From Amoebophrya sp. A120 (taxonomy: Eukaryota > Protista > Dinoflagellata): a stretch of 64,000 nt of DNA. The translations under genes were made by a program, and so were the position numbers. Shown one piece after another: positions 640 through 64,000 of this stretch. Below the pieces are notes generated by a model. The model was not told the origin of the DNA. It saw only the letters and a list, made by a program, of their open reading frames with translations, and did no database searches. The stretch covers positions 1-64,000 of the forward strand of contig CAJINV010000010.1 of NCBI GenBank assembly GCA_905178155.1. Reading direction: 5' to 3'. Numbering within the stretch: position 1 is the first letter of the stretch; each line of letters starts with the position of its first letter.

Positions 640-3600
640 TCAATGTGAAGTGAGTTTATTTGTTCTCCCTTGATACGACAACCCGTCCGACAAGTAGGAC
701 ACAAAGTGCCAAAAAGCGGCATCAAGTGCAAATGTGTCTGGGTCTGGAACCTTGTGACGCAGGTCTGTAAATGGTGTGCACACTGCAATAGAATAGCACG
801 CAGTTGTCAAGCATGACAAGAAGTTTTGAAGCTGCTAGTGTGTTTCGCTTTATTCCGCATGACAAACAGCGTTTCTGCACGACAGGCAACAGGCCTCTTC
901 CCCGCTCATGCCTCACAGATTTGAGAATCATGTTCATACCAGACAAGCAAGACAAACTTGCGTTCACGTTCTTCCAGACCAAGACATATTTCCAATCCAC
1001 CATATCTATGGATGTGTCAGGTTTGAAATCGTCAAAGTTGAAATAGTTTGTCATGCATAAAACAGATACCAGTCGGAAGCCCACTTATCAAGTGGCGCAT
1101 GACAAATTTTCCGAGCACCGGAATCCAATTTGTCATGCTGTTTGGGCACAGAAGACTGCTTTTGTCATGCGAGTTTAGTAGCTCTATTTCAAACCCTAAA
1201 CAGGCTCACAATCGGCTTCACTTGCTATCCTGGCAAGACAGGCACTTCATGCCTTGCATTTTATGCATCACAAACTATTTCAACTTTGTCGATTTCAAAC
1301 CTGACGCTTCCATAATATCCGGTCGGAATATACAAGATGTCGTAGGGCTGGAGATCGACCACAGCTATCAACTGTAAAAATGTCTGGGTCTGGAAACTTG
1401 TGATGCTGAGTGGCGTCTCATAGTGAGGCCACAAGTGCTGGCTCAGCATGACAAATTTCTGAGCTTGTAGGTGTTGCCTATTCTGCATGACAAATTGCGT
1501 CTCCGCATGACAGAAAAATGCGGCTCTTGGGCAACGTGCATGACAGATTTAAGAGTCATGCCAGACAAGCATGACAAACATGCATTCTTCCAGACCCAGA
1601 CATTTTTACATTTGATAACAGCCTCGAATATGTTATCAACACTGACGCTAGTGTCAGATGTTGAGTTGTTCGCGCGAGGATCTACCACCACGGCACTGCT
1701 GTTGCCGTCCTGCTCTGCTACTCTTCGCTGCGCCCTTCGGGCTACGTATTTGGGAAAGAATTCCGCAAGATATCAGAGTGCACAATTCCCCTTGTAATTC
1801 ACCTTGTCTTTCGTACTCAGAATCGTACACCTTTTGGTGGCCGTCGCCGTGTCTGCAACATCACCACAAGTTTATGAGGCCGAAACTCCACGACAATCCG
1901 GTTTTGCATGTGGGTTTATTGTCATGCAGAAGCTGCGTCCTTCGTGTCGTTTCTGTTGCTGCAAGCGCTACACAAATGTCGAAGGAGTGCTGGGGGAGCT
2001 GTGCACCCTCATAAAAGCTCTTCATCCGCCTGCGACGGGTCGAGCCCCGCGACGACCTTGTAGCCGTCATCGTGCAGTTATGCAACACAAATCTACTCGA
2101 GTAGCCGTACACTACAGTACGTGCACAAAAATACAATACATCACAAATTCCAGGAACAACATGGTGCATAGTTGTACCAATTTTGTCATTGTGGATGATC
2201 CCGACTTGCAAAAGAGCCTAGTCATGCGCAAAGAAACCGATAGTTTTCATTCGATGTAGTAAGTGTGGTACGGTACTAAGCTATGTGCAGTTTGCCCGGT
2301 TGATAGCCTGCTGAGCCCGTCAAAATATTCGTCCTGGTCCTGCGAGTAGAGAAAAACCCGCTTCTGTCCGCTCAAATGGAGTAGCAAACCGCCGAAACCG
2401 TGCGTGGAGTTCTCGATGTCCGTGTGCATCAGCGTCGCTTGTATGCAATGCAACCTCATCCCCGCTGCACATGCACAAAACGCATCACAAATTGCACCAA
2501 CTTAGAAGAAGCAACTTGTCATCATGCTGAAGAGGTTGCAAGGAGCAGTTTGTCATGCGGAAGCCACATTTGTACGTGTACGGGAACAAGAAATTTCCTG
2601 CGGATAGTTTTCTCTTTGCTGGCAAGCCAAATCTCGAAAGTTGGAAACACGTCCGGCCGGGCCAGCCACTTGGTAAAGTACTTTGGCGGCATAGTGCGGG
2701 GCTGCAGGTTCAACCCTATCCCGCGTAAAAACGTCACCGCCCAAGACTTGTAAATGAAAAGCCGCATGATGGTGCTCAAGATGCTTCTCATGCGGATATC
2801 CATGAGAAGTGGTTTTGTTTTCGTTTTGTAGTGGTGTTTTGAAATAATTTGTGATGCTAAAAGCAGCATGATAGGCGACGAGATCTGTGACGCTACTGCG
2901 TTAGCTAATGACGACTAGTATTACACTGCGCGCCCAAATTTGTCATGCGCAACAGCCAATGCTTGCTGATTTGTCTAGCCAATAACTTCCCACCTTAACG
3001 AAGGGGAGTTGGTGGCGTAGTTTCTACTCAGGATAAACCTGTTCGGACCGGTAGTGTCGATGTAGGGATTTTGTCGGAAAAGCTTTTTCAGGTACTCCAC
3101 AAACGGCCTCCAGAGCTCCTCCCGATCCGGAATGAAGTGCCGTGCGTTATCTTCGTGAAATCGGTATCAAATGCAAAAATGTAGTTTGGGTCTGGAAACT
3201 TGTGATGCGAGGAAGGAAATAGTGAAAGCCAAAGCAGTGCAATGCGCTGCCGCTGCCCAGCATGACAAGTCTTGCCGTAGTTCTGAGTTGCATACCCCGC
3301 ATGAGAAGCTGCGTCTTTGCATGACAGGCAACCGGAGCTCTTCGCGGCCACGCAATACAGAGCTCAGAGTCATGCCAGACTAGCATGACAAATCTCGCAA
3401 TCTCCCAGACGACCCACGCATATTTGCATTTCCATTTGATAATCGATAGTTCCCACTTCTGATTGTTTCCTTCAAACTGACACCGACGAAATCTTATCCT
3501 ATGCAAAAGCATCGCATTCGTATAAATGCAAGTCTTGCATTACAAATCTTTCTTTTAAGGCAGATCAGCATTACAAATCTTATTTCTCATGCTGAGAAAA

Positions 3601-4618
3601 TTTGTAATGCATTTATACGAGTACGATACTTTTGCAGTTCATAAATCTACGCCCGCACCGGTGTTGTTGTTAGAAGCTGCACCTTCTCCACCACTATCGT
3701 CTGCTGGGCTGCTCCTACCAGTAGATTTTCTGCTTGTAGCAGTAGTTTTCCTCGTCTTGTTGCTTTGATGCCGATGATCGGTTTCAACACCGATGGCGCT
3801 GCCGCTTTCTTCTTCAGATGATGATTCGTGTGGTGAATCCCCGTTCTGGCGGCTCTGTAGTCGTTCCTCCTCGTCTGATGTTCCCGTATCTGATGAAGTC
3901 GCTTCAACCTCTGCCCAGAACAGGGCGTCTTATGCAACACACAAAATTTACTTTTGGTTTTACCGCACAACGACTACACCACGAAAATGCATGACAGGTA
4001 GATATTTGCCAGCGTGAAGATTAAGATTGATTATTTCTATGTGAAAATCGTCATGGAGCTAAAAATTTTCCTGTGGCTCGGAAAAATAGCCCTAGTACGA
4101 TGAAGTCAACATTTGCAGCTCTACGACGTCGTGCGCGGCAAAAATGAATTTCCATTTTCGTTGGATACATCCGAGTAGTGTGTTAGAAGAAAATCCAGAT
4201 CCCAGTCAAACGGCGTGGTACTGTTCAGCATGGTGGTTTGGTTGCTCAACAAGTGGTCATCATTTCTCTTGTTCTCATTCCCAGGCAGTTGATGTCCTCC
4301 TAATTGTCTCCGCCCGAGCTCCGTCATGCGATGCACGGAGGGCACGCCCGGAACCAAATCGGAAAGATCGTCGCAGTTCTCGAAGATCCGGGGGACAGCG
4401 CCTGCGGTTTGTGTTGTTCTGGAAGCTCCTTCTGGCAAGAAAGCTGTTGTGGACGATGCTGGGGCCGCAAATGCGAAGTGGAGAAGCGCCAATAGTGAAG
4501 AGCGACGCTGTACTGGGTGAGGGTGTGGACCAAGAGTGGAGCTCTTCGTTATGGTGCTTGTGTGCGGCATTCGCTCTGGGTCTTGCAAAGAGGTTTGCCG
4601 CCGAATGGTCATTCTCAT
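640..4618 (-). CDS. JmjC/cupin-like (Cupin_8-type) 2-oxoglutarate/Fe(II) oxygenase, multi-exon
   Basis: Removing elements 3931-4167, 3495-3643, 3165-3441, 2717-3035, 2442-2606, 2079-2305, 1771-2013, 1366-1617 and 720-1317, each plus 5 bp, gives one open frame: WDLDFLLTHYSD...FEIWLASKEKTTLMHTD...LLLHLSGQKRVFLYS...DPSQADEEL-EFFPKY...VDLQPYDILYIPT(G/A)FWHFV...TSH*. This contains the HxD...H Fe-binding triad and typical JmjC motifs. Start codon uncertain (4618 or a downstream ATG). Confidence 0.8.
720..1317. mobile_element. family A introner (degenerate) with family H element nested at its terminus
   Basis: TIR core TGCAAATGTGTCTGGGTCTGGAA; flanks agcgg/tccgg. Confidence 0.65.
1007..1314. mobile_element. 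family H introner
   Basis: ~55-bp TIR TATGGATGTGTCAGGTTTGAAATC; DR atatc. Relatives at 25154-25460, 33407-33718, 35920-36226. Confidence 0.9.
1366..1617. mobile_element. family A introner
   Basis: TIR TATCAAnTGTAAAAATGTCTGGGTCTGGAA; DR acagc. About 21 family members in the window. Confidence 0.9.
2717..3035. mobile_element. family C introner
   Basis: TATCC...GTAAAAACG ends; DR aaccc/aacct. Confidence 0.75.
3495..3643. mobile_element. family B introner (~150 bp)
   Basis: TIR TATnnnnTGCAAAAGTATCGTACTCGTATAAATGCA; DR aatct. About 22 members in the window. Confidence 0.9.
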
Positions 4619-4947: not shown

Positions 4948-4979
<32 letters not shown>

Positions 4980-4980
4980 G
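4948..4980. repeat. (GAT)n microsatellite
   Basis: About 11 GAT units. Confidence 0.9.
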
Positions 4981-6835: not shown

Positions 6836-7636
6836 TTACTGTGTTAACCCCGTGAACTCCACATTTATCAGTCCCTTGCACCCCTTCTTTGCCTTTCCGT
6901 AGTCCACCGCCGCCAACTCTTCGCACCGCGTGTCGTTGTAGGTGTTGTAGCCGCGGTATGACTGTGCACAACTACTCCCCCTCCTCCTCATTTGTATTGC
7001 ATGAACAGCAATACAAACACCCGCACATGTGGAGCCTGTGCATGACAAGTTCATGCGCGTAATGTAGTACTGTTTGGGCCTCCGGAATCTGTCATGCAAG
7101 CAGCACCATACGACAGCGCTTGGATTTGGCATTTTGCATGACAAATCACGAGTGGGACGGGGAATTGTGCACTGTCATACGCAGAGTCGCGTGTCCAGCA
7201 AATTTCGCATCTTGGCGTGGCTATCCGGAATCGCGTTGTGGCACTTGCTATGCATTGCAAATATGTCTGGGTCTGGAAGACTGCAGATGTAGTTTGTAAT
7301 GCAGTTTTTGCATGACGCAGTAGAGTGGCATGCAGGGACCAGCATCGCAGGTTCTTCGAGAGCTCCATGATGCCTACTCCGCATGAGAAATGCGCTCTCA
7401 GCATGTGCATGATGATCAAAGATACACATTACTTGCTGTTCCTGTTTTTCTTTTTGCAAGACAAATTTTCCTGTGATCTGAAATGCGCATCACAAGTTGC
7501 AACCCTCCAGACCCCGACATGATATTTGCACTTGATACTTGCCGATCATGAAGTTACTGGCCGCTTCCCAGGCACCCAATTTGACTTGCTCCAACTCGCC
7601 ACATTTCTGGCAAGTCACGCGAATAGCAACTGACAT
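6836..7636 (-). CDS. small Cys-rich hypothetical protein (~92 aa), 3 exons
   Basis: MSVAIRVTCQKCGELEQ...MIGK|CHNAIP...TRLC|GYNTYNDTRCEE...GLTQ* after removing elements 7249-7537 and 6957-7179 plus 5 bp each; contains a CxxC motif. Confidence 0.6.
6957..7179. mobile_element. family E introner
   Basis: TIR TATGACWGTGCACAA; DR cgcgg/cgcag. Relatives at 1771-2013 and 24480-24699. Confidence 0.85.
7249..7537. mobile_element. family A introner
   Basis: TIRs present; DR cttgc. Confidence 0.9.
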
Positions 7637-8917: not shown

Positions 8918-9923
8918 GAGCGGAGTAACAATTGACTCAACTAAGTCGGATCGCCGACTTAGTCGTCCGTCCGGCCGCACGGACGACTAAGTCGGACTTT
9001 GTCGCGGGCGGAAACTTCCTCCTTCAGGAAATCGAAGAGCCGGGGAGATAAACCCTCACCCGGCGTCCTGCCGTGTGAGAAAGTGCACTTTTGTAAACGG
9101 ATTTTTGCGCTTTTGGTGTGATTTTTTTTTCCGGGTGAGCATCCCGAAAAAAATGGCAAATGCTGTTTTTTATGCATGACAGTTGCTGTTTCTGCATGAC
9201 AAAGTAGCCCTTTCTTCAATTAAAAAAGAAACGAGTTTTATTTCATTTCCTGCAAAAGCAAAAAAAAGCAAAAGTCCACACTTTTCATGTGAAGACTTTT
9301 TTCATTTGGAAAAAGTGCACCCTGGTTCAGCTTCGCATTCACACTCGGCTCGGGGGGTTGCGCGAATTCCCACCTCGGTGGGGTTGCGCGTTCGCCAGAC
9401 GCGCAACGAACGCGCACCCCCCCCCCCCCCGAGCCGAGCTGGGGATGAAGCTGAAAAAGGTTGCACTTTTAAAAATGCGAACTTTTGCTTGCGAACGCGC
9501 AACCCCCCCGAGCTGGGAATGTGGGGGCGGAGCTGAAGAAGTAGGTCGCACTTTTTCCAAATGAAAAATGCGGACTTTTGCTTTTTTTTGCTTTTGCAGA
9601 AAAAGTTTCTTTTACTGCAGAAAGGGCTAACGTGTAATACATAAGCAGCAACTGTCGCGCGTAAAAAATAGCACTTGCCATTTTTTTCGGGATGCTCGGC
9701 CGAAAAAAAACACACCAAAAGCGCAGAAATCCGCTTACAGAAGTGCGCTTTTTCATACGGCTTTCGGGTGCTGTAACGGCAGGAGCCCGGGTGTGGGTTC
9801 TCGGCTCTTCGATTTCATGAAGGAGGAAGTTTCCCGCGACAAAGTCCGACTTACTCGTCCGTGCGGCCGGACGGACGACTAAGTCGGCGATCCGACTTAG
9901 TTGAGTCAATTGTTACTCCGCTC
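8918..9923. mobile_element. intergenic foldback/MITE-like element with very long TIRs
   Basis: Ends GAGCGGAGTAACAATTGACTCAACTAAGTCGG are exact inverted copies; arms stay similar for ~400 bp; 3-bp TSD ATG. Confidence 0.85.
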
Positions 9924-10064: not shown

Positions 10065-13000
10065 CTAAATCCGTATCGCCTTTCTCACCGCCCGCTTTAG
10101 CCTTCCCAAGTAGATATGGATTGCAAAAATGTCTGGGTCTGGAAGGTTGGAACTTGTAATGCTAGCTTTCCACACCTAGAAAATCTGTATTGCATAACCA
10201 ACAAAAGTCGCAGCCTCTTTTGTCATGCAAGAACGCAGTTTCTCATGCGGATTGCCTATGAGAAAGCGTTTTGGGAAGTTGTCATGCCGGACTGCATTCG
10301 GAAGTCTTTTCATCATGCACATTTTAGCATCACAAGTTTCCAGACCCAGACATTTTTGCATTTCATAGTAGACGCCGAGATTGATCGTATCCGTGGAAAT
10401 TTTGTCGACCGAGAACGTCAGGAACGCGGCGATATCAAATGCAAAAGTGTCTGGGTCTGGAACTAAGCAACTTATCATGCTAAATCTGAATGATGTAAAA
10501 ATCTGTGTTGCGTGCTTACCAAAAGCTGTCCACTTTTGACCTAATCGAGCGGCAGTTTCTCATGCAGGATAGGCATGATGGAACTCATCTCACAGAATCT
10601 GTCATGCTAAGTCCTACGTGCCAGACCTCAGGGGTCATGGAAAACCTGCATGACAAGTCTGGCACTCTTCCAGACCCAGACATTTTTGCATTTGATAGGC
10701 GAAGAACACTTGGACAGACGTCGTGATCAAAGACTTCCTATGCATTGCAAAAGTATCGTACTCGTATAAATGCAAGTCTCGCACTACAAATCTGTTCCCG
10801 AAGGCAAATCAGCATTACAAATTTCCTTTCTCATGCTGAGAACATTTGTCATGCGATCTATACTAGTACGTATGGATCCACTATTCGCCAAACATGCGTA
10901 TTTGCATTTGCTCGAAATATTGAAAAATCCTCAATAGAGATTGATGTTTCCGGGTATGAGACGCCACCTATATGAAAATACGCCGCACCAAATCCCCTCC
11001 CCACCTCAGCGCCAACGAAGCTCACCACTCCCCTACTTCTTTCGCTGTATTCCCATTCTCTAGTACAGCTACAAAAAGATCAATCGACATCGGTTCACTT
11101 CTGGCTCTTTCCCACATCGTTGACACGGCCGCGAAGGCACAGTCATTCGTTGAGATATCAGCTCCCTGCGCGTCTCTATCAAAGTCGGAAGACAATCGTC
11201 TGGATCTCTAATCCGAAAAATGAAAACAGTCAACCCCGGAAGGGTTCCAAAAATGAAATCAAGGAGCCATCTCTGGCCTGGTGAGGTAACACAGAAAAAC
11301 CCAAGCAACTGCCACACACACCATTGCGCGCGGGCAGTCGGAATATGACGTGGGGGGCCTACCCCTACGACAACCGGGCCACGAAGAAGCGAGCCCGAAG
11401 GCGGAACCGCGGCGCGGAGGTTAATTTGTTTTGGGGGAGTTCGCATTCTTTTTGCGATTTTCAGCTGAGGGGCAACATGTTGCGAAAATTTTATTTCGTG
11501 ATAAAGCGCGCTCAGAAAATTAAATTTAGCAGGTTGGGTGTTTTGACCCAACCTGCGGCGCAGGTTGGGTCAAAACACCCAACCTGCTAAATTTAATTTT
11601 CTGAGCGCGCTTTTTCCCGTATCTGGCAGCGGCCGAGGAGGTTCGGCCGCTGCCAGAAACGGACCACATGACGAAAAGACCTTGGCTGTTCGGAACAGCC
11701 AAGGTGTTAGCTTTCATCATGTTGTCCGTCGTTTCCGTCTAGCTGAAAAGGTCGCCAGCAATTTCCTGTCCAAAATTAGAGCCCACATCCCCACCATCGA
11801 GGGACGCTTTGGCTTTCAATATATGCGCGTTCGAACTCGGGACGCTTCAATGCGGAGGCTTTCGTCTTTATCAACTCCTTCAAAGAAGAAGCTTGCAAAT
11901 TCCACCACTCCTTCTGCTGTTTTTGAGTCGTTTCACCGGCAGGATCGACGAGTTGGATAATATCGCAAGAAAAAGGTGCTACAGTAACGCATTGTGTTGC
12001 AGGCCAAGCAAGACAGACAAGCTGCGTCATGCCGGATATACCTAGCGAGCCTCGTTTCATAGGTGTTTTCCCGTAGGATTTCTGCATTACAGGTTTTGTT
12101 TTCTCTCTCATGCAGAGAAATTTGCGCTGCTGAATTCACTAGAAGCGTGTAACTGTATACACTTTTTTCGTGGGATAGATAATAGTGGCGATTCTATACT
12201 TATTGAGGAATTTTCAATAAACCGACCAAATCCAAATGCGCAGGTTTGGGTATATCGTGGGTCCCTACTAGTACGTTACTTTTGCAGTTCATACTTCCCT
12301 GGCCCGAAGGACTGCAGCACCAAGGCGATGAAGAGAAACAGCAACGCGAAGATCAACGAGTAGAACTATCCCACGAAAAAACTGTTTCACTGTGATGATT
12401 TTGCAAGATCTGCATCACAAGTTTGTTACACATGACAAAGAAAACTTGGCATGCGTGCTCCCTAAGAGAAAACACAGCTAAAAATCCAATGTCTTGCATG
12501 TGTAGCAAGACAAACGCATTTGCGTTCCGTTCTATGCATCACAAGTTTACAGCTAAGCAGTTTTTTCTCACGATAAGAACAGCAGAGTCAGCAATATCTG
12601 GTCCGTTTCCAGCCCGAGGTCTCGCATCTATCCGGAGTAAAGATCATGTCCCCGCACCAGAGTCAACATGGGAAATCTGCTAGACAAATCCATAAGCTTT
12701 GGCTGTTTCGCATGACAAATTTGGACGCGTAGGGTAGTGCTGTTTGAGCTAGCTAAGCAGCATTACAGATCTAGTATCTCATGCTGATTGGCGCATTACA
12801 GATTTCCAAGCCGCATTAGAAAATGCTTCTCATGGGGCTCCGCATGAGAAACATTTTAAGCATGCAGAGTAGCATGACAACTATGGTGTGGGTACGTTTT
12901 TACACAGGATAGCATCAACTGTTTCTTCAGTCGCTCCTTCGTCACAATTAGCAGCGCCATTTGGAATTCATGGAGTTTCAGCCGTTCCTCCTTCTCCACT

Positions 13001-40576: not shown

Positions 40577-40706
40577 TTTCTTTCTACTAGAAACTTTCTG
40601 TTGATCTCCAAACTTTCTTTCTACTACTTCAACAAACTTCTACTAAACACTAAGTTAATATTTCCACAATCACACACCTTATCCTTAACCTTGTCATCTG
40701 TAAGTT

Positions 40707-42546: not shown

Positions 42547-42551
42547 CAGAG

Positions 42552-47904: not shown

Positions 47905-49404
47905 CTAAATATCCACCTCATATCGGTCCCGCACGGCCTCGATCCAGTCGTGTACGAGCATCTCGCGGACCATGTAAACGCCCTGCGTTTGCAGCAACCC
48001 CACCAGCCGCTTGTGCATTTTCACGAACATGCCGGGGGGAAAGTACCCCTTCCACTCCTGAATCGATCCCTCATCCACGAAGCAGGTGACCTGTGGGCCG
48101 TTCGACTTCTTCAAGTTTTTCTCCGCAAGCACGTTCTATCCTGTGCAAAAGTATCGTGCTCGTATTGCAATCATGCACTACGAATCTTGTTCTTAAGGTT
48201 AAGCTAAATCCGCATTACAAATTTTATTTCTCATGCTGAGGAAATTTGTATTGCACGACTACGATACTTTTGCAGTTCATACGTTCCTGTCCACTACGAT
48301 ACTCCTCTTGCGCTCTTCATCTTCTTTCTGCTCGTCGGGAGAAGACTTTGATTTAGATTTGCTCTCGTTCATCAGAAGCTTCATTTTCTCCTCTGCGACT
48401 AACTCCTCCATTCTTTTCATCTCGTAATCCCCATCCACAGAAAAAACCCATCCACGTCCAATTTGTCATGCCAAACACGTATCAAATCACGTGTTTGCCA
48501 TGCAAAAAATGGATGTGGATGGATTTTTTTCCGTGGATAATCCCCATCGTAGTAATACTCCGAGCAAAAATCCACAACGCTGAAACTGCCCGCAACGTCG
48601 ATAAAGCCACCGTAACAGGGACACGAGATCTTGTACCCTATCGACATCATCCACTCAAACGCAAGGCGGGACTTCTGTCGTGTTGAACAAGTTGATGATG
48701 ATGTAGAAGAGGTTGTGCTTTGATCTTGCTTCAGTGACTTCTGTTGTAGTTCCGGCGGCGTATGCAGCATCACCTCCCCCCGTACGTCCGCTTCCAGAAA
48801 GTCCAGCCAACATGCCGTTTCGAGTTCTTGATTTTCTTGGCAATAATTTCTACTATCACTTTTATCCTGTGTGGAGGGTGCTGCTCCACCACCGCATCCG
48901 CTCAGTTGCATTTGCTCCCTCTCCTCTTCCGTGAGCTTCATCCACAAACAGGCACGCGTCGGCCAAGTTTCGTCGATTATAGTACCGGGTGGACGTATGT
49001 TGTTCCTGTATCTACTCGTGTCGTCGTTCTCGTCCTCCAAGGAGGTTGCCGTTGAGACACTGCTCTTGTCGTTCACCTTCAGTTCGTGCCGTCGGTCCGG
49101 GGGAAGCTGCTTGTAGAAGTCGCGACTGTAATATGCACAGCATATTGAAGTAGATTCCCATACGTTCACCTGCACATCAGATGCGATTTCTGCATGACAA
49201 ATCTTCTTTCGGTCAATCTGATTTGATATCACAAGTGGCATGCAGCTCAAAGTTAGCAAAATTTGTCATGCGCTTCGTACTTCTTAATCTTATGCGGCTA
49301 TAAAAACGGGAAATCGTGAAATTTGTATTGCATACGAAGCGAGCCAAAACCCACTCCTCGCTCCATGCGGATATGTTCTTCTCGGTCCAGTGCTGTTTCG
49401 ACAT
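47905..49404 (-). CDS. hypothetical protein, 4 exons
   Basis: MSKQHW...ARF|GRDFYKQ...DGD|YEMKRMEE...DRN|VLAEKN...EVDI* after removing 49132-49334 (degenerate), 48432-48539 and 48137-48281. The paralog at 40.7-41.7 kb confirms two junctions. Confidence 0.65.
48137..48281. mobile_element. family B introner, absent from the paralog
   Basis: DR cgttc; empty site at ~40935. Confidence 0.92.
48432..48539. mobile_element. family L introner, absent from the paralog
   Basis: DR atccc; empty site at ~41078. Confidence 0.9.
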
Positions 49405-50583: not shown

Positions 50584-52293
50584 AGTGCAGGTCTTGTTGC
50601 AGCGGTAGTTCCGCCGGAAGAAATCCACCGGGAAGTGGACCCAACAACTACCGAGAAGAAAAAAACGAAAACCACGAGCGCCGGACGCTTATTGCGACGA
50701 CCGCGCCGCACTTTGTTTGCTTTTCACTACTTTCTTCACGGGCACGTGGTCGTGGAGAAACTGCGAGATTTACTTCCGTATTGTTCCGCCGCAATGGAAC
50801 GAGCATCAGAGAAGTGCACACAACCAAGTCGCACGGCCTGTGGTTGAGATAAAAAAAAGTGGAACCCGACCTGAAGATAATGTGGCAGCTCGGACGACCG
50901 AACACGACAACTCACTGATCCTACTTGATGGTGGAAGTTTTTCCGATTATATCCAAAAGGGAGAGGAGAAGTAGTACACTTCATTTTCATCTTCACAGAC
51001 TCAGCGCCTCCAAGGTGTGAAGACCAAGTAATTACCTACACAGGAGCAGAACAAATCTTTTCTTTCTTCTTCTTTACTTACCACGACATCACCGTCGGTG
51101 GAGAATCAAACCTTCTGGTCTTGGCCTGCTCCCAAATCACCACGTCTGCGTGATGGGGAGCGAGTCTTCATTGTGACCACCCGACAGAAGGTTTTTTTGA
51201 TATTTATGCAAGAAACGGTCTTTGGATGATTTGAAAGCTGCGGAGCGATGATTGAATAGCCTAAGAAAGGTTCTTGAACATGATCCGACATGATACACAT
51301 CATGCGCTAGCTGGTACTGAATTGATTCGATAGATGAAGCTGCCGCGAAAATAGTAAAATCTTGAATTGTCATACCCGGCGACTGCAGCTGCGCCACAGC
51401 AGAAACCTTTGCACCGTTGCCGCAAGCAGCTACGTTCGCAGGAGATCGAGGGTCAGAGTTGCAATAAATAATCTTGATTTGTCGTGCGATTCAACAATGA
51501 TAACAATCACAAGGGGTTGCTCCCCTACTTCGAACAGTTCCTACTCTTACTGGCACAGTCACAAATTAACTTGCCTCATTGCTATTCCAATCCATGCATG
51601 GCTCGTCTATTTTGAATACCATACAACTGGCTATACTTTTTCGTGAACCGCATCCGCAGATGATAGATATCGAGATGCGAACGCTTGTTCGCTAAAATCT
51701 TTGATGGAAGTATCAATAGTGCATGCCACGACTCAGAAGATGACATATTTGCAGAAATAGCGAAACTGCCCTCAGAAATCAGTTGCGAATTAGCACTACG
51801 CTCACTACTTTCCAAATGATATATTGGGCCGCGGCTTGCTTCGTTGTCAAATAGATTGCAGTAATTTTTTTCTGTATGCTTCATGGTCAATCTTGACTAC
51901 TTAATTTATTTCTACTATGGTCATGAGCTTGGGTTTGCTTTTTTTCGTCCGATGAATAAGACTACCGCATGGTTGTAGTGGGGTTGAACTAAATAAATGT
52001 TTATTTAGATCGCTTTCGATTACATCAATGATGCCACTGCACTGCGAGACGCCACTCGACGGAGCGCAGCTGCAGTTCTGCACCAATTTATTTTGCTTCA
52101 CTATCATTATACACTTACACGAGCAAGCCAGCACCAGTCGTGTCAGCTGTGCTCACATTCTTCAGATTTGTAAAAAGTGGCGAGTACTACGATTCTAAAA
52201 TTATGACTTTATTGCACGATCTGGCGTCAAGAGAACAACGCTGATTAATTGATGATGATGATGATGTACCCAACTGCGGGGTCTAAGGCATCC

Positions 52294-53584
52294 TCACAAC
52301 CCTGGCGGTGGTCCCGACACAGGCGTAGCATGCGGCTCTACCATGATATTACCTGCTGCCGCTCTACTATGATTTCGGACGGCCAGATAATACCTATACC
52401 AATCTCCACCAATCGTTTCCAATTGGTACTCTCGCCCGGTATCGCGATAAGTGAACTCGAGGGCCCTTTCCCATTTTCGCCCTACTTCTAATGGCTGCTG
52501 TACGTGGTCTACTTCTGCACTGCCCGCTGCTCCAGGCCTGGCCAGCGCCAGCTCTTCACCACCAAGCGTGAGGCGCAAGAGATCCCTGCTGCCCTGAGGA
52601 GCCTCCTCCACCTGTAACGCAGCGCGGGTCCAGCGCCACGTCCGTCCCTGGGTCCGGAAATAAGGTTCATCAAGAAGTGCATAATGCGGCACACTAGTAC
52701 TTCTGCAGCTTAAGTCACGAACGATTTCGCATCCGCTCCGTTCCATGGTGGGCGTTAGGCTGGATTCCAGGTCAAGCAAATCGGCGTACATAGAAGGTGA
52801 AGGATCAACGAAAAGAGAAACATCCAAAACCTTCCCCGGGGTGCTTAGCCGTTCGTCGCTATTTTTCTGCAGGTGAAACAGAAACTGAAGCAGCTTCGTC
52901 CACTGCGTACCGACCTCGTTTTCGAAGTTCTTTTGGTAAAGAACGCTTTCGACGAGAACACGATCGAAGTCCTGGGCCTTCACGCTATTCCACGTAACAG
53001 CGCGACCCGCTCCTGGCACAGAAGTTGTCGGGGCTAGGACGTGCACAAGCGGAACCAGGGGACGCCCAGCACCATGGTCACTACGATACCCCCAATCGTG
53101 CGAGATCACACCAACCCGCTTGGTAAGCTTTGCTTTCCTGTTCTCTCTCTTTTCCGAAAAAAATAACGCTACCAGCCCCGGCGACCGCGTCAAGTTCTTG
53201 TAGAGAAGCGGCAACGAGTTGAAGTTGTACCGTATTAAGTTCTCTTCATCCTCATCCACTCCCGACAGCACCCGCCCTGCTGCTTCAGCTTGTTTCGCCC
53301 TAGCAGTAGCAACGTCCTGCGCGACGTGTTTTGCGGCAAAAGCCGCCCCAGCTTCTTCCGCGGTCGCGTACGTGCGGCGACCTCCAGGACGAGTCCCAGG
53401 ACGCGAGGCCGCAGAAGCGAGCGCCTTGGCCTTCGCGGCGGCTTCTGCTCTTCGCTGTTGTTCTTCTACTTTTTCCACGCGAGCACGACGGACCTCCAGC
53501 TCCTGCAGCTTGTCCTTTTGGGCTTTAACACTGCTCTCCGACCGTCTTTTCTTTTGGATCTCGAAACTGTTGGTGCGAAAGGGT
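52294..53584 (-). CDS. hypothetical protein (long terminal exon; 5' end unresolved)
   Basis: 394-aa ORF extendable upstream (KAQKDKLQELEV) to element 53585-53721; its 3' part is duplicated at 42166-42546. Confidence 0.55.
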
Positions 53585-54385
53585 TATGCTGTGCAAAAAT
53601 ATTGTGTTGATGATTTGGCGTTTTTTGCATGACAGATTCAAACCAAAACGCTTGATCATGACCTTGCGGTCCGAAAATGCAAAAAGAGAAAAACACCAAC
53701 ACAATATGTTTGCAAAGCATAAGCGCGACACTCCCGAACGCGTTCCTCCTAGATGTAGATGTTGATTTTTCCCGCTGCTGGAGCACCGGGCTTTTCGACT
53801 TCTTGATGAGATGGAGATGATTTTCTAGCGGCTTAAGAGGAACACGCTGGAGAATAATCTGGGGCGTTGCAATTTCCGACACACCGGGAGCCATCACGGA
53901 GAGGGGCGAAGCCGTCCCTGTCTTCCGGTAAATGCTTTCCGAAGAGGGTACGAAAAAGACCGAAGTTGTACTTGCTGGAAAACTGGCGGATGTGCTCGCA
54001 CGTCTCGCTGTGCGTACAGCTGGTGGCCTTGTGTTGGGCATCTTCACTCTGCTTTACTTCAAACCAGGCTAACTCTCTAGCGACCACGTGTAACCTATGT
54101 GACATCTGTGTACAAAGACCCTCACCTCACTGCTCTCACTTCGCTCAAACTCTCTTGACCCCAAAAAAAACAATTTTGGCTGGACATTAGACAAAGCGAA
54201 GGCCTTACGAAGGACTGCGAGGCGTAGCTACCTTTGCAGGTAGTTCCACGGCCTACAGCGTGTGCTCGACTACCTTGGTGATATGTTACAAAGGTCCCCA
54301 ACTTTTCTGAATGTGACGCGATGATGTACAACGCAATGCGGTTGCAGCTTGTCCTTTTGGGCTTTAATAAATTAATTTCGTACTA

Positions 54386-56300
54386 CTAGAGCTCGCCGTT
54401 GGCTTCTGCTTCCAACTGGTCCAAGTACTCTGCTTATGGATTGCAAAAATGTCTGGGTCTGGAAGGATGCAACTTGTGATGCTGCATTTGGATTCTACAA
54501 AAATCTGTATTGCATGAACAGCAAAAGAGTTGCAGTTTTTGCGACGGCGAGAGGGCATTTCTCATGCGGTATAGGCATCAGGAAGCCCTCAAAAAATCTG
54601 TGATGCTAGGGTATGCATCACAGACATCAGGGTTCATGCCAAAGCTGCATCGCAAATCTCTGCATCCTTCCAGACCCAGACATTTTTACATTTGATACTG
54701 CTGGAAAGCGGTCCCAAACTTCAGCATTGTGTGTATCCTGTGCAAAAGTATCGTATTCGTATAAATGCAAGTCTTGCATTACAAATTTTTTTCTCAAGGT
54801 AAATCCGCATTACAAATCTTAATTGAATTCTCATGCTGGGGGAACAATTTGTCATGCATTTATACGAGTACGATACTTTTGCACTTCATAGTGTGCTTCA
54901 CGCAGCTATCAATTGCAAATATCCCTGGATGATGTCTGGAAGATTCTAAGGCTTGTCACGCACGTTCTTTTGCATGAGCCATGACGTCCTCTGTGATGCA
55001 TGCCCTAGCATTACAGATTTTTTATTTTTCAGGGCTTCCTGATGTTGCCTATTCCGCATGACAAAAAATACCCTCTCCGCGACGTAGCAAAAATTCCATT
55101 CCCTTTGCTGCGGATGCAAAAATACAGTTTTTTTTGGAATCCAAACGCACCTTCCGATTGACACATCTAAACCCAGATCGATGTTTGCAATTCCATACCT
55201 TTTCCCCCTTGCCAAAACGCTGCGCATCAGTTTGCCTTGCTCCAAAACACTAGGGTCCAAGGGTGCACTATCCCACGAAAGAACTGTTTGTTCACTGTGA
55301 TGATTTTGCAAGATCTGCATCACAAGTTTCATCTTACACATGACACAGAAATAAATTTGCCATGCGCGGCACTTCCAAAGGGAAAACAGCGTCAAAGAGT
55401 CGCGGTCTTGCAGGTGGAGCAAGACAAATAGTTCTGTGATGTTGCCTTCTGTGCATCACAAGTTCACATTGAAACAGTTTTTTCTTGCGATATGCACCGC
55501 CCGCGTAAGTCCTCCGCTTCTCACGTTATCCTGTGCAAAAGTATCGTACTCGTATATTAAATTACATTCATGCACATCTCTTTCTAAGCCTGAAACAGCA
55601 TTACAAATTCCAGTTCTGTTCTTGCCGGAATTTGTGATGCAATTTGTACTAATACGATGCTTTTGCATTGCATACACGTAAGCGCGCAACAAAATTTGTC
55701 CAGAGCGGCGGCGCCGTCATCGTAGTGTCTATCTGGATGTAGGGAAGCAGCAGCGAGTCCTTCTCTTCCTCATACAAAGTTTTGGTGCGGTTTTCTATCC
55801 TGAGTAAAAACATCCCCACCCCATAGTTGTCATGCAGATTTGCGACTACAGGAAGATTTATAATGCGCATCTCCATGAGAGGCATTTCCAATCGCGTTTT
55901 GGAATTTGTAATGCTGTAAACAGGATAAACAGATGGATTTGCGATCCGGTTGTCCTTGCTAACATGCACTACACCTACACTACGGACTGCAACTTCTCAT
56001 GCGTGGCTTCCAAAGCTTGTGGATTTGTCTTGCTAGGACCCCAACTTGACTATGGGGTGGGGACGTTTTTACATATGATATTTTCGGTTCTCTGCCCATC
56101 CAGGGTTTGTACCTCCAGCTCCTGCAGCTTGTCCTTTTGGGCTTTAATAAATAGCTCTTCATCGTCTGCCTCAGTCTTGCCAATAGCCCTGTTGAGGACA
56201 AAATTCTTCTTCTTGTTTCCTCGCGCTGGGCTGGTACTAGAAGAGGCCGCTCCGGACGTCGGTGGTAAGTCTGCGCCTCGAGCAACTTGTTGCTCACCAT
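54386..56300 (-). CDS. hypothetical protein, about 7 exons
   Basis: Frame is kept across 55796-56080, 55527-55674, 55269-55492, 54734-54890 and 54435-54697. The junction at degenerate element 54907-55197 does not follow the 5-bp rule. Shares KAQKDKLQELEV with the 52294 gene. Confidence 0.45.
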
Positions 56301-59004: not shown

Positions 59005-62000
59005 CTACGGCCCCGCCCCTCCGCTTGTCGGACTGGGTGTTCTAGAAGAAGTCGAGCTTGAATTCGGTATCAACTGTAAAATTGTCTGGGTCTGGAAGAT
59101 TCTGACAGTTGGTTGGTTGGTTGGATAGCGCCTGTCGCCGGTGCAGGTCCCGCCCTCCATCGATTGCGATCCGGAGTAGCCGGAACACAAGGCCCTAGTG
59201 GCACAATCGATCGACGAAGCCCTTTATAACCAGGTCACGGACATCCGGCTGCCGTGGAGTCATTCGCGGGCCAGGCAACGTCTAGGAGCTACGGATTAGG
59301 GATCTTGATGGGCGAGACAGGTCACAGTCATCCGCCTGCCCATCGAAGACGAGCCAGGTCACAGTCATCCAGCTGCGTTCACAGTACGAGCCAGGTCACA
59401 GTCATCCAGCTGACTGCATAAGAACGTCCCCGGCAGCAATCATCGAAGTGAACCCATGGGAAGTGTCGTGAAATGCCAAAGACAGGAATCCCCTGACATA
59501 CGCCAACAAAACCCAATAACCACATGTGACGACGTGGAGAAAGGGTAGACCCCGACTGGCCTACGAGTAGGCCTGATTGCTCCGCTGCGTGGTATTTTCC
59601 CGGGCAAATTTATTTAAAGTGAACCCCGGGCCATTATTACTATCTATTATATTCATGCGAAAAAAGAGGTCTACAGAGGGTAGACGAGAGGTGGCCGAGA
59701 GGTCAAAAAGAGGTCAAAAGAGGTCAAAAAGAGGTCGACAGAGGTGGAGAGGTGGTGCGGGAGGTCATTCGGGAGGGTGGCCAAGAGGTGGCGCGGGTAT
59801 AGCGAGCCGAACCGTTCACCCTAAAGCCGCGCCTATAGGGACCAGAGGGGGCCGAGAGGGTGCCAAGAGGGTAAGCGAGAGGGGGACAGAGGTGCCGAGA
59901 GGTTGCGCGAATAAGGGCGAACCTCTCGCGCACCCTCCTGGCCACCTCTCGGCCACCTCTGTAGACCTCTAACGGCGAGTATAGCCGGACTATTAGCAAC
60001 ACCTCTCGGGAGAGGTAAAAGAGAGGGTCTGCGAGAGGGTACAAACAACCCGAATCCGCCCGGTACAGGGCCGATCTTCTGGGGGATTTTGCATCGCTCG
60101 GGCCCGCACCCTCTCGCGCCACCCTTTCGCGCCACCCTCTCGCGCACCCTCTCGCGCACCCTCTCGCGCCACCCTCTCGCGCACCCTCTCGCGCCACCCT
60201 CTCGCGCCACCCTCTCGCGCACCCTCTCGCGCCACCCTCTCGCGCTACCCTCTTGCGCCAGCAGTTCCGTCGGCCGGGAAGCCATTGGGCGGGGGCGGGA
60301 GAGTGATCAACACAGGGCAGCGCGGCCCCCCTTGTGCTTCGGCACTTACGCCGAGGCGACTTCTCTTTGCCCCCAAGCTTCGCTGCAGCTGCTCCCTGCG
60401 CATAGCGCCTAAAGGCGCGGGAAGCGCGCAGGAGACCCTGCGGGGTTGCATGGCGCAAAACGGCGACAGTATGTTCCTCGGGGGGTGGGGGGCTGTCGCG
60501 CTGTGTCCAAAGCTCTGGCGCGGCGTCCCGATCCGCAAATAGTCCTGCCCTGCCACAACAGCCTAGCGCCCCGGCGTCTGCCGGGGCATGGCTGGTAGTT
60601 GTCACGCACGTTTTGCATGAGCCATGATGTCCGTGATGCATACCCTAGCAATACAGATTTTTTGAGGGCTTCTTGATGCCTATTCCGCGTGACAAATGCC
60701 GTCTCAGCGCAGCAAAAATTGCATTCCCTTTGCTACTCACGCAATGCAGATTTTTTTGGAATCCAAACGCAGCATCACAAGTTGCATTCTTCCAGACCCA
60801 GACATTTTTGCACTTGGTATTCGGTCCTGGCAACCCACCAGCTTCTACCGCATGATCCTCACCCGGTGGCTATCCTGAGTAAAAACGTACCCACACCAGA
60901 GTTGTAATGCAGATTTGCAAAGACAGAAAGACTTATAATGCGCATCCCCATGAGAGCCATTTCCAATCGTGTTTTGGAATTTGTGATGCTGTGAACAGGA
61001 TGAGCAGATGGATCTGTGATGCGGGTGCACTTGCTAACCTGCACTACAATGCATAGTGCAACTTGTCATGCGTGACTCACAAAACTCCTAGGTTTGTGTT
61101 GCAAAATCCCCATCCTGAATCTGGTGTGGGTACGTTTTTACTGAGGATAGTGGCCCACTAGCGTCCCGCAAGTACCTGCCGGGCAGCAGATTGCGATCGT
61201 GCGACGGCCGAATGTCCGGACTGCCACTGCGGCTCCGCGTAGTTTTCGGAAAGGTCGCGGTTCCGGTACTGTTCCTCCTCACTGCAGAATTTGCGATGTT
61301 GCTATCAAATGCAAATATGTTGTAATCTGGGTCTGGGAAGTTTTGATTCAAGTCTGTGAATGTTGACAAGAGCACTGCAATTGTACCCAGCTAAGGCTGT
61401 TGCTGGCAAGAAATTTTTGGGATGCTACGTGTTTCGTTTTCTGCGTGACCAATTTCGTTTTTGCATGACAGGCAAGACCTGCCCCTTTCCCTGCCCGTGA
61501 AACTGCACAGATTTAAGAGTCATACCAGGCACGCATGACAAACTCAAACTTGCATGACATACGTACTTACTCGAGACCCAGAGAACATATTTGCAATGCG
61601 TAGTCGCCCGCAGATGACGAAGAGGACGCCGAAGACGATGCGGAATATCAAATGCAAAAGCGTCTGGGTCTGGAAGAGTGCATGCTTGTCATGCTTGTCT
61701 GGCATGACTCTTAAATCTGTCATGCACGTTACCCAAGAGCCCCATTTTGCTGTCATGCAGAAACGCAGTCTGCCATGCAGAATAGGCAACACCTAGAAGC
61801 TCAAAAGCTTGTCATGCTGAGCCGGCACTTGTGGCCTCTTCATGATACGCCACCCAGCATCACAAGTTTCCAGAACCAGACATTTTTACAATCCATACGG
61901 AAAGCAGGTTGGCAATGGATCCCGGTTGTACTTTCAACACGTCGTCTGCTGGTGCAGTTCTACTTTGGCCGATCATGTCGTCCGCAAAAGTAACCCCTTT

Positions 62001-63850
62001 ATTGGTGTTCGACGTGGATGTTGCAAAAGAACTTGCGGAAGAGGAGGAGTTGGAGGGTGCTGCTGCAACCGCTGGTACAACTCCTGGTAGTGGGGAATAA
62101 GGCAGAGCTTTTTTCGTCCAGGTGTCAGAACCGGCTTGCAGGAATGATAAAGCTGTAGATCCTCCGCTGCTGATATTCGCCGGGCCGGTTTTGTTACTCC
62201 TTGAATTTCCTGTCCCCGTTTCGGAAGGTTTCGGCTCCCGGACCGGCGGGTTGCGGTCCAAGACCCGTTCCACATCCAGCCGATACTGCTCCATCTCCGC
62301 TTCCCGTTCCGCTTGGGTCTTGTAATTCAGGTAGTTGAAGGCTGCCCGGGCATCCGGCTGAACATAGTCGGTCTCGACATGATTCGTCATGCTCTGCTTT
62401 GATCCACCGACAGCTTCACTGTTCCTGATTTCCATCCACCGGGTTATCCCACGAAAAAAGTGTTACAACAGTTACTACACACTTGTAGTCAATTCAGCAA
62501 CACAAATTTCTCTGCATGAGAGAGAAAACTTGTAATGCAGAAATCCTACGGGAAAACACCTATGAAACGAGGCTCATATGCATATCCGGCATGTCAGAGC
62601 TTGGGTGTCTTGCTTGGCCTGCAACACAATGTGTAAGAACTGTAACACTTTTTTCCTGTGATACGAGTTGCTGCGGAATTACTAGGCGGCGACTTGCTGC
62701 CGGAGGTTGCGCGGGGGCGAGAAGAGGAGGAGGAAGAGGATGCTCGTCCTGCATTGTTGTTCATCAACATTCCACCAGCTCCAGACGAGGCACTACTGTA
62801 TTGGCCGGGCCGGTAGTTAAAAGCATTTCTGGTGCCCGAGGAACTTGAAGCGATTTCAGCAGGGACAGCAACCGCGTCCACAGTGTCAAACAGGGACGCT
62901 TTGGTCAGCAGGGAAGTCACATCCTTCTCCCACTCTTTGCTGTTGGACCGGATGGACTTGTACGCCAGCCCAGTGTAACTCCCCCCATCCCCCTCGGAAA
63001 TCCCGTAGGTAGAGAGGAACACGTTGTTCGCGTGGCCACTCAGATCCGCCTGATTCGTATTTGTGGTTGTTGTTCCAACACTTGCATTTGTGATGGATTT
63101 CTTGCTGTTGGTCAGCGGGATGAACCGTTTCTCGATCGGCTGGTGGTTTATCGACCGCGGACTGGCGATTTTCAATCTGTCCCCCGGGTTGATTTTCGTT
63201 CTAGGGGACAAAGGCGAGCTCTGCCCGGGCCCGGACGCGGAGAAGCTGTAACTGCCATAGGGGAGGATCTGCGACGCCTCGCCGCCAAGTGGCGTTGGGT
63301 TATATTGGAACGCATTGCTATTTGTAGTGGTTCCGGTGAACGAGGTATCCCATGTAAAAACATCCCCAGCTGCCCAGAGTTGTCATGCGGATTTGCAAGC
63401 ACGAGAGCATTTGCAATGCGAATCCCCATGAGAGGCATGATTTCCCATTGTGTTTTAGAACTTGTAATGCTGTAAACAGGATGAGGAGACGGATTTGTCA
63501 TGCGGCTTCCCTTGCTATGCTGCACTTCAGTACAGCCTGCAACTTGTCATGCGTGACTCCCAAAACTTCAAGGTTTGTGTTTCAGAATCCCCATCTTGTC
63601 TCTGGGGTGGGGATGTTTTTACTTAGGATACGGGGCACCGCTGATGGAACTGTTCCCAAGCAACTTTCGATTTGTGCCGTACAAATCTCCGAGTAGGTCC
63701 GGATGGCGAAACTTCTCAACCAGCTGCGAGAGCCAGGTGAGGATGTTTGTCGCGGTTGACAAGGACGTCTGTGGCGCCGCACCGGAGACCCCCGCAGCAA
63801 GCCTTAACCGGTGCGACAACTCGTCCGCGACGTAACCCAAGTAGGTTCTC
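59005..63850 (-). CDS. 3' part of a Ser/Gly/Pro-rich hypothetical protein; continues beyond the window
   Basis: Continuous frame across 63346-63630, 62445-62663, 61646-61897, 61303-61602, 60871-61149 and 59068-60819, ending SPTSGGAGP*. Confidence 0.65.
59111..59636 (-). mobile_element. possible non-autonomous retroposon with (AACC)n tail
   Basis: Begins (GGTT)3 on +; apparent agtt duplication (59107-59110 / 60597-60600); internal 16-bp repeats. Confidence 0.4.
59637..60595 (+). mobile_element. non-autonomous Helitron-like element, copy 3
   Basis: a|TTACTATCTATT...GCCCCGGC-gtct-GCCGGGGC atgg CTGG|t. Confidence 0.7.
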
Positions 63851-64000
63851 TATCCATAGGAAATAATTTCCTGTGCACGTCGTACAAATACAAATTATGC
63901 GGCTTCTGCATGACAAAACCTACCTTCCATCCTATATTAGCATGACAAGTGGCATGTTCTAAATGATAGCAAAGTTTGTGATGCATTTTGTCCGTGTACG
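63851..64000. mobile_element. family D introner truncated by the window end
   Basis: TATCCATAGGAAATAATTTCCTG start with TGTnATGC motifs. Confidence 0.7.

Follow-up and report, generated by a model that had tools for sequence, protein, structure and literature searches.

Introners of Amoebophrya A120 have been described as elements with TAT, seven variable bases and AAA at their ends, short direct repeats and non-canonical borders; they form many families and reach tens of copies per gene at lengths of 105-320 bp (Farhat et al. 2021, PMC7789003; Gozashti et al. 2025, PMC12130899). One of them, family 38, combines TA/TA ends and a 5-bp target-site duplication (TSD) with LTR-integrase-like homology and is Ginger-like (PMC12130899). 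For A120, no transposase was found and general mobilisation by a transposase was argued against; U1 snRNA was detected in neither A120 nor A25, and many non-canonical introns lie outside repeated families (Farhat et al., PMC7789003). That paper treats as open questions how the introners move and how they leave RNA without GT-AG borders or a detected U1. The available portions of both accounts give ends and families; an internal motif shared across families and a spacing rule, both reported here, are not described in them (PMC7789003, PMC12130899), and the accessible supplements of published work on the A120 families hold no match to the short motifs. Our likening of the present elements to introners is by description.

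We analysed 64 kb of A120 DNA (64,000 nucleotides, hereafter the window) together with 134 loci, of at least 134, listed from one related assembly, and the statistics rest on these two sources. The same families are present in the related assembly; because its scan was anchored on the terminal inverted repeat (TIR) of family F1, F1 is over-represented among the related loci. The window holds 84 small mobile introns with TAT...ATA ends in 13 families (Table 1), 110-320 bp long overall and mostly with two to seven sites per element. They look like A120-type introners, with a TAT-N7-A run, a direct repeat at the border (a 5-bp TSD here versus 3-5 nt), removal at non-GT-AG borders and repeated families. 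TAT stands at 158 of 166 element ends and A at positions 11-13 in 84-92% of 167 termini, and the end pattern common to all families is TAT-N7-AAA; the two ends of an element mismatch each other at positions 4-7 in 26-63% of 410 elements, those of the related loci listed included. The TSD is perfect in 52 of 83 cases and carries one mismatch in 20. Curation of the automatic calls removed three that were false or motif-free and introduced 14 further elements manually; single-linkage clustering merged families and was rejected. Summed contig depth in contig set X2, which is not copy number, runs from thousands to more than 100,000 in element-rich bins versus about 50 in exon-only ones.

Table 1 Families of mobile introns and other features placed in the window
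Feature	Positions	Strand	Details
F1a	7249-7537, 10433-10697, 21919-22181, 23080-23357, 28792-29073, 30301-30567, 30646-30916, 35575-35864, 44399-44671, 54435-54697, 54907-55197, 59068-60819 (nested insert)	.	12 copies, ~260-290 bp, typically 5-6 sites
F1b	720-1004, 1366-1617, 3165-3441, 10115-10367, 13637-13898, 31199-31458, 43610-43871, 61303-61602, 61646-61897	.	9 copies; F1a TIR, different interior
F2	3495-3643, 10739-12293 (nested insert), 13976-14126, 14908-15046, 15796-15966, 18440-19617 (nested insert), 20052-20247, 20764-20909, 23409-23569, 23807-23951, 24749-24897, 27156-27304, 27370-27532, 27621-27773, 28288-28430, 28568-28716, 34168-34327, 36319-36468, 43374-43526, 48137-48281, 54734-54890, 55527-55674	.	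22 copies, ~140-195 bp
F3	2717-3035, 12629-12911, 16356-16620, 23988-24266, 33835-34114, 35138-35431, 44054-44342, 55796-56080, 60871-61149, 63346-63630	.	10 copies, ~280 bp; one-direction sites (35138: single extra opposed site)
F3 example array	60871-61149	-	six same-direction sites centred 36, 67, 115, 148, 197 and 228 bp from left end; gaps 31, 48, 33, 49, 31
F4	1007-1314, 20410-20714, 25154-25460, 32190-33364 (nested insert), 33407-33718, 35920-36226	.	6 copies, ~305 bp
F5	2442-2606, 25845-26008, 26928-27078, 28085-28228, 29298-29455, 49132-49334, 63851-64000 (cut by window end)	.	7 copies
F6	12367-12575, 15237-15455, 43032-43249, 55269-55492	.	
F7	11961-12177, 62445-62663	.	
F8	16749-16919, 37483-37646, 41156-41332	.	
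F9	1771-2013, 6957-7179, 24480-24699	.	
F10	34974-35088, 37297-37414, 42843-42958, 48432-48539	.	
F11	13065-13302	.	
F12	53585-53721	.	
Fold-back element, other class	8918-9923	.	~450-bp arms, 77% alike; degenerate 9-bp flanking repeat; ends not TAT
Host gene	10068-37748	-	4,603-codon stop-free frame once 49 elements + 5 bp each removed

The sequence-only reading had proposed that a short motif, WTGTnATGC or its complement GCATnACAW, is reiterated every 30-50 bp in nearly every element, inside otherwise unrelated families, and is scarce elsewhere. Its reiteration and its scarcity were both confirmed. Of 182 exact matches in the whole window (88 on the + strand, 94 on the -), 179 fall inside catalogued elements (18,249 bp) and three, at 9194, 39199 and 56610, in the remaining 45,340 bp, which corresponds to 9.8 versus 0.07 per kb. 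At least one match is found in 78 of the 84 elements and at least two in 60. The motif is enriched over background, as 100 dinucleotide shuffles of element DNA gave 4.5 ± 1.9 matches with a maximum of 10; outside elements, shuffling predicts 2.3 matches. The claimed interval does not describe the exact 9-mer, which occurs once per 102 bp of element DNA, but fits degenerate sites scored with a matrix (380, one per 48 bp), whose neighbours lie a median of 33 bp apart, with 185 of 296 gaps at 30-50 bp. Nor is the first position a true W: it is T in 180 of the 182 exact matches, and its commonest variant is C (43 GCATBACAG versus 178 GCATBACAA and 1 GCATBACAT). The n of TTGTnATGC is T in none of the 182 window matches and in 11 of 1,292 among the loci listed from the related assembly. 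That the families are otherwise unrelated is mostly borne out, except that F1a and F1b share one TIR: with sites masked, z exceeds 3 in 5 of 91 between-family pairs (mean z 0.78) versus 12 of 14 within-family controls.

The 9-mer is the core of a full site of about 23 bp, W-T-G-S-N7-GCATBACARRTT, in which the profile G, C, A, T, G/T/C, A, C, A, R, R, T, T is joined by a second patch, W-T-G-S, at -11..-8. This profile was replicated in 13 families of the related assembly alone, among the loci listed, and site-like sequence lies directly behind TAT in 25 of 167 termini (null 0.17). Leave-one-out mismatch is 1.8% at invariant site bases versus 4.4% in spacers (383 elements, including those of the related loci listed), and in 53 independent close pairs the invariant bases differ by 3.3%, spacers by 9.6% and the free base by 8.8%; CpG mutability does not account for the spacer drift.

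A same-direction pair of sites at 31-33 bp is found in all 14 family representatives, each picked from three central copies as the one with most sites (null mean 2.3, best-window null maximum 10), and in 12 of 14 plain medoids; 7 of 14 families have tail-to-tail pairs at 33-34 bp (null 0.85). The 47 neighbour spacings are fitted best by a 10.4-bp period whose offset, 3.5 bp, corresponds to the centre of the -11..+12 footprint (mean cosine 0.57; null maximum 0.31 in 400 sets; P=0.0025), and spacing often equals three or four helical turns. Inverted pairs alone yield P=0.015 for this period, which rests largely on the 31-33-bp class; the other same-direction gaps fit poorly (cosine 0.18, n=12). 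F3 has same-direction gaps of 48-49 bp, the 47-49-bp class alone is not significant (P=0.056), and indels in the 31-33-bp gaps are not significantly rarer (P=0.38). The conserved site bases, free central base, spacing rule and helical period support the shared protein-binding code suggested earlier, binding itself being predicted from sequence. Old modules that families may have in common would inflate the family counts.

Removal of the elements was followed in the host gene, whose open reading frame is restored only when an extra 5 bp is taken out with each element, and in 18 exons of which no Pfam family scored above cut-off. Joints in RNA-like contigs cover 10108-16920 and 20046-20248 of this gene; each of the 15 joints shown skips exactly one element plus 5 bp, and the borders removed are non-GT-AG. 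These contigs come from one sample and are presumed to be RNA. Contig set X1 skips 20047-20247, which set X2 reads through. X1 leaves parts of 25910-30049 uncovered, which has no bearing either way, and in the raw-read RNA runs X5 and X6 coverage is confined to element DNA, at 90-95% likeness, and is uninformative on splicing here. Nested inserts of 1.0-1.4 kb, site-free in their own sequence, do not stop exact removal: 10739-12293 is skipped together with its insert, and 18440-19617 is bridged by a loose end.

Elements of other classes were said to be non-intronic and poor in the motif. This holds for the sites of 46090 and 49594, which have none, as do four nested inserts; 46090 (TAC..GTA) has instead four copies of its own 20-bp internal repeat. 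The fold-back element at 8918 departs from the description in its sites and probably also in being intronic. It carries two sites 20 bp apart in its left arm (9174, 9194), the right arm retaining decayed counterparts with both sites lost, and it is probably skipped (8909->9926) in one RNA-like contig, judging from the coordinates of the contig record. Among the related loci listed there are two distinct candidates for motif-poor introns of other classes: L038:4096-4825, with one 17-bit site, a 7-bp TSD and weak ORF restoration, and an element in L069/L121/L122, with no ORF restoration. A further candidate, L008, was rejected as two ordinary elements back to back.

We judge the chances slightly better than even that the sites bind one shared protein, most likely a transposase or its helper, which would mobilise all families in trans. 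The motif is likely the landing pad of one putative protein that moves the elements and possibly also helps to remove them from RNA. Several protomers would line one face of the element (110-320 bp) and, by bending it, bring its two TAT ends together. New copies would arise only from copies with an intact array, and for this reason the spacers could drift in sequence while keeping their length. The TA..TA ends and 5-bp duplication point to an integrase-like DDE enzyme, and removal from RNA might be guided mainly by the paired ends and direct repeat rather than by the motif. Sites are lost as copies become isolated (from 99% kept to 75%), which favours the shared transposase, as do the site-like sequences behind TAT, the private repeats of motif-free 46090 and the exact removal of elements with site-free inserts. 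Against it, sites fill the element interior rather than its ends, the first lying about 36-68 bp in and facing either way. Searches of 30 window exons and ORFs and of 60 of the 172 ORFs from related loci yielded no transposase or integrase family, nor was any long element or autonomous partner with TAT...ATA ends detected in the window, the 134 related loci listed or viral contigs; the latter gave 0 TIR matches and 35 tandem motif-pair matches, none with TAT ends. The apparent skipping of 8918, with other ends, a 9-bp repeat and two sites, and the slow decay of isolated copies also speak against it.

That slow decay supports a possible but doubtful alternative, in which the phased array is occupied by a DNA-binding protein of the host, which might be a domesticated transposase. 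Such a protein would tag the element for removal while it is being transcribed, with or without a further part in movement. In its broadest and equally tentative form, this would be a DNA-level mark on non-canonical introns in their tens of thousands across Amoebophrya: the phased array would be read on the double helix by a protein of the host or one derived from a domesticated transposase, which would pass the element to U1-independent removal in the course of transcription, and any TIR element that gained the code would become an intron whichever way it lay. Among the 73 most isolated copies, 3.2% of invariant bases (29/911) differ, versus 6.0-7.3% in a spacer-matched neutral simulation, about half the neutral rate, and per pair in the most isolated bin the figure is 3.4%, versus 12.4% for target duplications. 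This fits selection after insertion, although source lineages missing from the sample could produce it too. One internal site or none is present in only 7 of 410 elements, those of the related loci listed included, and all 17 elements seen skipped keep two to seven. The presence of sites in 8918 and L038:4096-4825, set beside their absence from 46090, 49594 and the four nested inserts, points the same way, as does the failure to detect U1 snRNA in A120 or A25 (PMC7789003). The erosion of sites with isolation is at odds with such a factor. Site loss also rose with TSD mismatch in a window-only test (3.0, 5.6, 13.9%) but not in a stricter one (P=0.29), and TSD mismatch, which gave conflicting answers and does not track spacer divergence, was dropped as a proxy for age. 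Copy 35575, whose removal is predicted from the restored ORF around it, keeps one of four expected sites while its TIRs are intact; the right arm of 8918 no longer has either site, and the many non-canonical introns outside repeated families (PMC7789003) also weigh against a removal factor. Whether the motif outlasts the rest of old degenerate copies consequently receives two answers, decay below neutral and erosion all the same. Between the transposase in trans and the removal factor proposed earlier, the data lean to the transposase without being decisive, and the decay tests disagree.

An action of the motif on RNA is improbable, whether as a code for a protein that reads single strands or through motif-complement pairing that folds the intron. 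Many interiors do fold far better than shuffles (z down to -12.5), and 11 of 12 family medoids are predicted to form site-site pairs on one strand or both. F3, however, shows neither pairing nor folding excess (z 0.0, -1.0), and is skipped in both orientations: copy 12629 has seven sites, all complement-type in RNA, copy 16356 five, all motif-type, and the same RNA-like contig skips both. Strand preference is absent (178 versus 175 sites by transcript sense), and no co-variation links opposed sites at the free base (85/232, null 85.2; 39/90, null 40.2; 46/150, null 44.8), which in F1b is complementary in only 2 of 49 symmetric pairs. A 10.4-bp period is, moreover, not expected of single-stranded RNA. 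A strand-specific RNA reader is largely refuted. The skipping of one-type F3 copies whichever way they face, together with the lack of co-variation between opposed sites, makes it likely that the reader recognises double-stranded DNA. As an RNA code, the presence of both orientations does not explain strand-independent splicing.

We give a similarly small chance to an ordinary host chromatin or transcription factor whose sites were amplified for insertion, replication or tolerance; phasing at the DNA level fits any DNA-binding protein and plant MITEs amplify factor motifs (PMC5950925, in its available text), but the site is nearly absent from the rest of the window (3 versus 2.3 expected) and site-like sequence sits at many element ends. 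Least probable is that the arrays are the legacy of one ancestor built of ~32-bp repeats, with the motif as the last recognisable piece, for although masked families retain a weak likeness and share the TAT-N7-AAA end, neutral legacy predicts even decay, whereas site bases are conserved two to three times better than spacers even in close copies, the free base drifts like spacer, and site order and orientation differ between families while spacings recur.

The spacing rule inside mobile introns is new. With one 23-bp site and its spacing rule shared by all families examined, both movement and removal, left open in the source paper, become testable. The result suggests a single system behind the roughly 1,950 'families', with one protein serving them all, free spacers and a kept geometry.

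Among known systems, euglenid nonconventional introns have the same non-canonical borders, paired ends, TSD-like repeats and unexplained removal; they carry CAG/CTG near the borders, with CAG at +4..+6 pairing with CTG, and the accessible text mentions no internal phased motif (PMC11282704), whereas the elements here have a terminal base matrix without a fixed CAG. IS3EU/GingerRoot elements have TA..TA termini as here, with a TSD usually of 6 bp versus 5 bp (PMC10045372), and A120 family 38, in the account available, matches in both ends and duplication length (PMC12130899). By analogy, family 38 offers a precedent for a shared transposase, together with Lemi1, which binds subterminal repeats of the Emigrant MITE (PMC1636448), and TnsB of Tn7, which needs several weak 22-bp sites at set spacing (PMC9308760). 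Judged from the portions of these reports that were available, the elements here resemble both in having several weak sites of ~22-23 bp behind a short terminus, with spacing conserved more than spacer; the Tn7 left-end sites are reported to be separated by 42 and 31 bp, which may be gaps rather than centre distances, so the numerical match may be chance (PMC9308760). In contrast to Emigrant and Tn7, the sites here fill the whole element in either direction and are common to at least 13 families that differ in TIR core; the elements, moreover, are removed from RNA. A short non-coding body bounded by TIRs, a TSD of fixed length and repeated sites with conserved spacing are MITE features, here combined with sites that are not end-confined and have no fixed polarity.

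The motif WTGTnATGC/GCATnACAW, in which n is a free base, has 182 exact matches in the window: TTGTCATGC (95), TTGTAATGC (46), TTGTGATGC (39), ATGTCATGC (2) and TTGTTATGC (0). Within the 18,249 bp of catalogued elements lie 179 matches, with 3 in the remaining 45,340 bp, whereas shuffled element DNA yields 4.5. An iterated matrix (cut-off at least 8 bits) recovered 380 sites, at 20.8/kb within elements versus 0.57/kb outside, and 83 of the 84 elements carry at least two, a site-like terminus included. The family-weighted profile of this extended site spans -11 to +12 and comprises a weak W-T-G-S patch followed by pyrimidine-rich sequence and then GCAT-B-ACARRTT. It was reproduced by 13 families of a related metagenome assembly alone, where A occupies the free base in just 11 of the 1,292 exact matches among the listed loci. 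The feature is genuine, and sharper than the sequence-only reading described; the 30-50-bp spacing proposed there holds for degenerate sites (median gap 33 bp) and not for the exact 9-mer.

The elements were catalogued by terminal inverted repeat (TIR) and flanking target duplication (TSD), 70 automatically and 14 by hand. They begin with TAT, finish with ATA and measure 108-320 bp without nested inserts; the 5-bp duplication is perfect in 52 of 83, and no target-site preference was found among these duplications. We pooled 83 window elements with 327 related ones (up to 360 bp), drawn from the 336 distinct elements of one metagenome contig scan of one related assembly (at least 134 partly overlapping loci, 610 kb), and the resulting 410 form 14 clusters with at least four members. 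With sites and TIRs masked, z=3 was exceeded by 5 of 91 between-family pairs versus 12 of 14 within-family controls; family interiors are mostly unrelated, with a weak residue left. At the termini of the 410 elements, left and right ends differ at positions 4-7 in 44, 41, 26 and 63%, respectively, and positions 4-13 are identical in just 34; the words at positions 4-9 come from a small interchangeable set, and positions 1-3 and 11-13 are concordant. Copies of family F2 split 18:4 by their orientation to the host frame (two-sided binomial ~0.004, by hand), a skew that F1a (7:5) and F1b (4:3) do not share. Introner 41156 versus 48137 and 48432 differ between copies of a local segmental duplication, so these insertions appear younger than the duplication.

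Pairs of same-direction sites 31-33 bp apart are present in all 14 of 14 family representatives (mean under the null 2.3, and at most 10 for its best window) and in 12 of the 14 medoids taken without selection. Tail-to-tail pairs 33-34 bp apart are seen in 7 of 14 (null 0.85); a 47-49-bp gap class was not significant on its own (P=0.056). The 47 neighbour gaps were fitted by a period of 10.4 bp with an offset of 3.5 bp, representing the footprint centre, which converts tail-to-tail 34 and head-to-head 48 both to 41 bp, about four turns. The fit has P=0.0025 (400 random placements, offset refitted), or P=0.015 for inverted pairs alone; much of the periodic signal stems from the 31-33 class, other same-direction gaps fitting poorly (cosine 0.18). 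Indels in the 31-33 gaps were not significantly rarer (P=0.38).

We judge it slightly better than an even chance that the phased sites are bound by a single transposase or helper that acts in trans. Several of its protomers would load on these sites and bend the short element, bringing its TAT ends together in pairing, and copies with intact arrays would seed new families. The TA..TA ends and 5-bp TSD suggest an integrase-like DDE enzyme; scanning 30 window frames and 60 of the 172 related ORFs revealed no integrase or transposase gene. The private repeat of element 46090 fits lineage-specific transposase sites. Neither element 49594 nor four nested inserts contain a site, and the earlier claim that the motif is rare in 8918, 46090 and 49594 stands for the latter two and fails for 8918. 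It is possible that the ~1-kb element with 13-bp repeats targets introners.

Other elements, remnants, genes and reads (window coordinates unless a locus of the related assembly is named)
Feature	Position	Observation
TAC..GTA element	46090-47600	5-bp TSD; no GCATBACAA site; outside any ORF of at least 60 codons
Its own 20-bp internal repeat	46746, 46853, 46923 (reversed), 47093	four copies
Fold-back element	8918	1 kb; different ends; degenerate 9-bp repeat; one arm has two sites separated by 20 bp, the other their decayed counterparts
Related-assembly element	L038:4096-4825	7-bp TSD; one strong site
TIR element	10871-12267	presumably hAT-like; 8-bp TSD; itself hosts introner 11961-12177
Intron nesting the TIR element	10739-12293	whole 1,560 bp omitted exactly
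~1-kb element, 13-bp tandem repeats	18564-19587, 32230-33098, 59640-60597; L010:776-1568	inside an introner in 3/3 window copies, a few bases from a motif site
Probable heavily decayed elements	2079-2290, 3931-4090	outside catalogue; lone remnant sites at 2082, 2138, 3989
Local segmental duplication	40690-42600; 47890-49000 / 51870-52680	by eye
Host gene	10068-37748 (-)	4,603-codon orphan; 49 introner insertions, phases 0/1/2 = 15/23/11
Exon	42555-42836 (-)	DUF285 match, E 6.6e-17
Raw RNA reads (X5/X6)	20409-20517, 25431, 31425-31458	sequence of related elements, attached to different flanks

Excising each element with one duplication copy gives the single host frame, and excising 0, 3, 4 or 6 extra bases instead leaves at most 540 codons. 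In RNA-like contigs, which come from three runs on a single sample and whose RNA nature is presumed, the 15 joints listed, out of 16, all omit exactly element plus 5 bp; contig set X1 omits 20047-20247, which X2 reads straight through. Where duplication copies are unequal (13065, 13637, 15796, 16749; also 6957), the retained exon letters are those of the transcript-upstream copy, placing the upstream cut at TAT or one base earlier for the first four, 15796 and 16749 included. Reads of another sample (X5/X6) suggest that some copies are unspliced in its RNA. The host gene matched no Pfam family above cut-off (18 exons scanned).

That the sites instead serve a DNA-bound removal factor is rather doubtful, and a few cases keep this reading alive: 8918 and L038:4096-4825 belong to other classes and carry sites, and the coordinates of one contig record (X8, record 6) connect 9926 with 8909, so 8918 is probably omitted too. 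Conservation bears on it as well. The sequence-only reading had set against its proposal a motif decaying like the rest of the element, a pattern that the data do not show. Site bases diverge less than spacers in 10 of 11 families, in a design biased toward the motif. Leave-one-out differences (383 elements) were 1.8% at site bases versus 4.4% in spacers, and 53 close pairs gave 3.3% at site bases, 9.6% in spacers and 8.8% at the free base. Site retention drops from 99% to 75% as copies grow isolated, isolation mixing true age with unsampled source lineages in a sample of 410 of perhaps 30,000 copies. Decay tracked TSD mismatch in a window-only test and did not in a stricter pooled one (P=0.29). 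For the 73 copies of greatest isolation, divergence at invariant bases is 3.2%, about half the neutral simulation (6.0-7.3%), which would fit a removal factor; whole-site retention is 0.80, near neutral (0.71-0.79). These data fit selection at transposition and/or after insertion, and do not separate the two.

A code acting at the RNA level is very improbable. Read along the transcript, 178 sites show the motif and 175 its complement; the unidirectional sites of family F3 present opposite strands to the RNA in copies 12629 and 16356, both omitted in one contig record (X1, record 3); and co-variation at the free base of opposed sites is absent in three pair classes. Many interiors fold well, as expected of partly palindromic elements, and F3 does not. 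On these grounds we consider both an RNA reader and pairing between motifs unlikely, and protein bound on double-stranded DNA likely. We give little credence to an ordinary host factor occupying the sites, and least of all to legacy repeats.

An internal, helically phased site shared across families appears to be undescribed, and it makes two open questions testable. No account of such a motif was found in the literature searched, which lay outside subscription journals and figures S19-S25 of PMC7789003, where internal motifs may be depicted; two motif spellings and the TIR word were unmatched in 13 of 14 supplements of PMC12130899, within cells readable to 400 characters. That source lists A120 family 38 with '5-bp TSD, TA/TA Termini' and LTR-integrase-like homology. 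The elements themselves are of a known kind: by features, rather than by sequence match, they agree with the A120-type introners of Amoebophrya described in PMC7789003, with TAT, seven variable bases, three A and short direct repeats.
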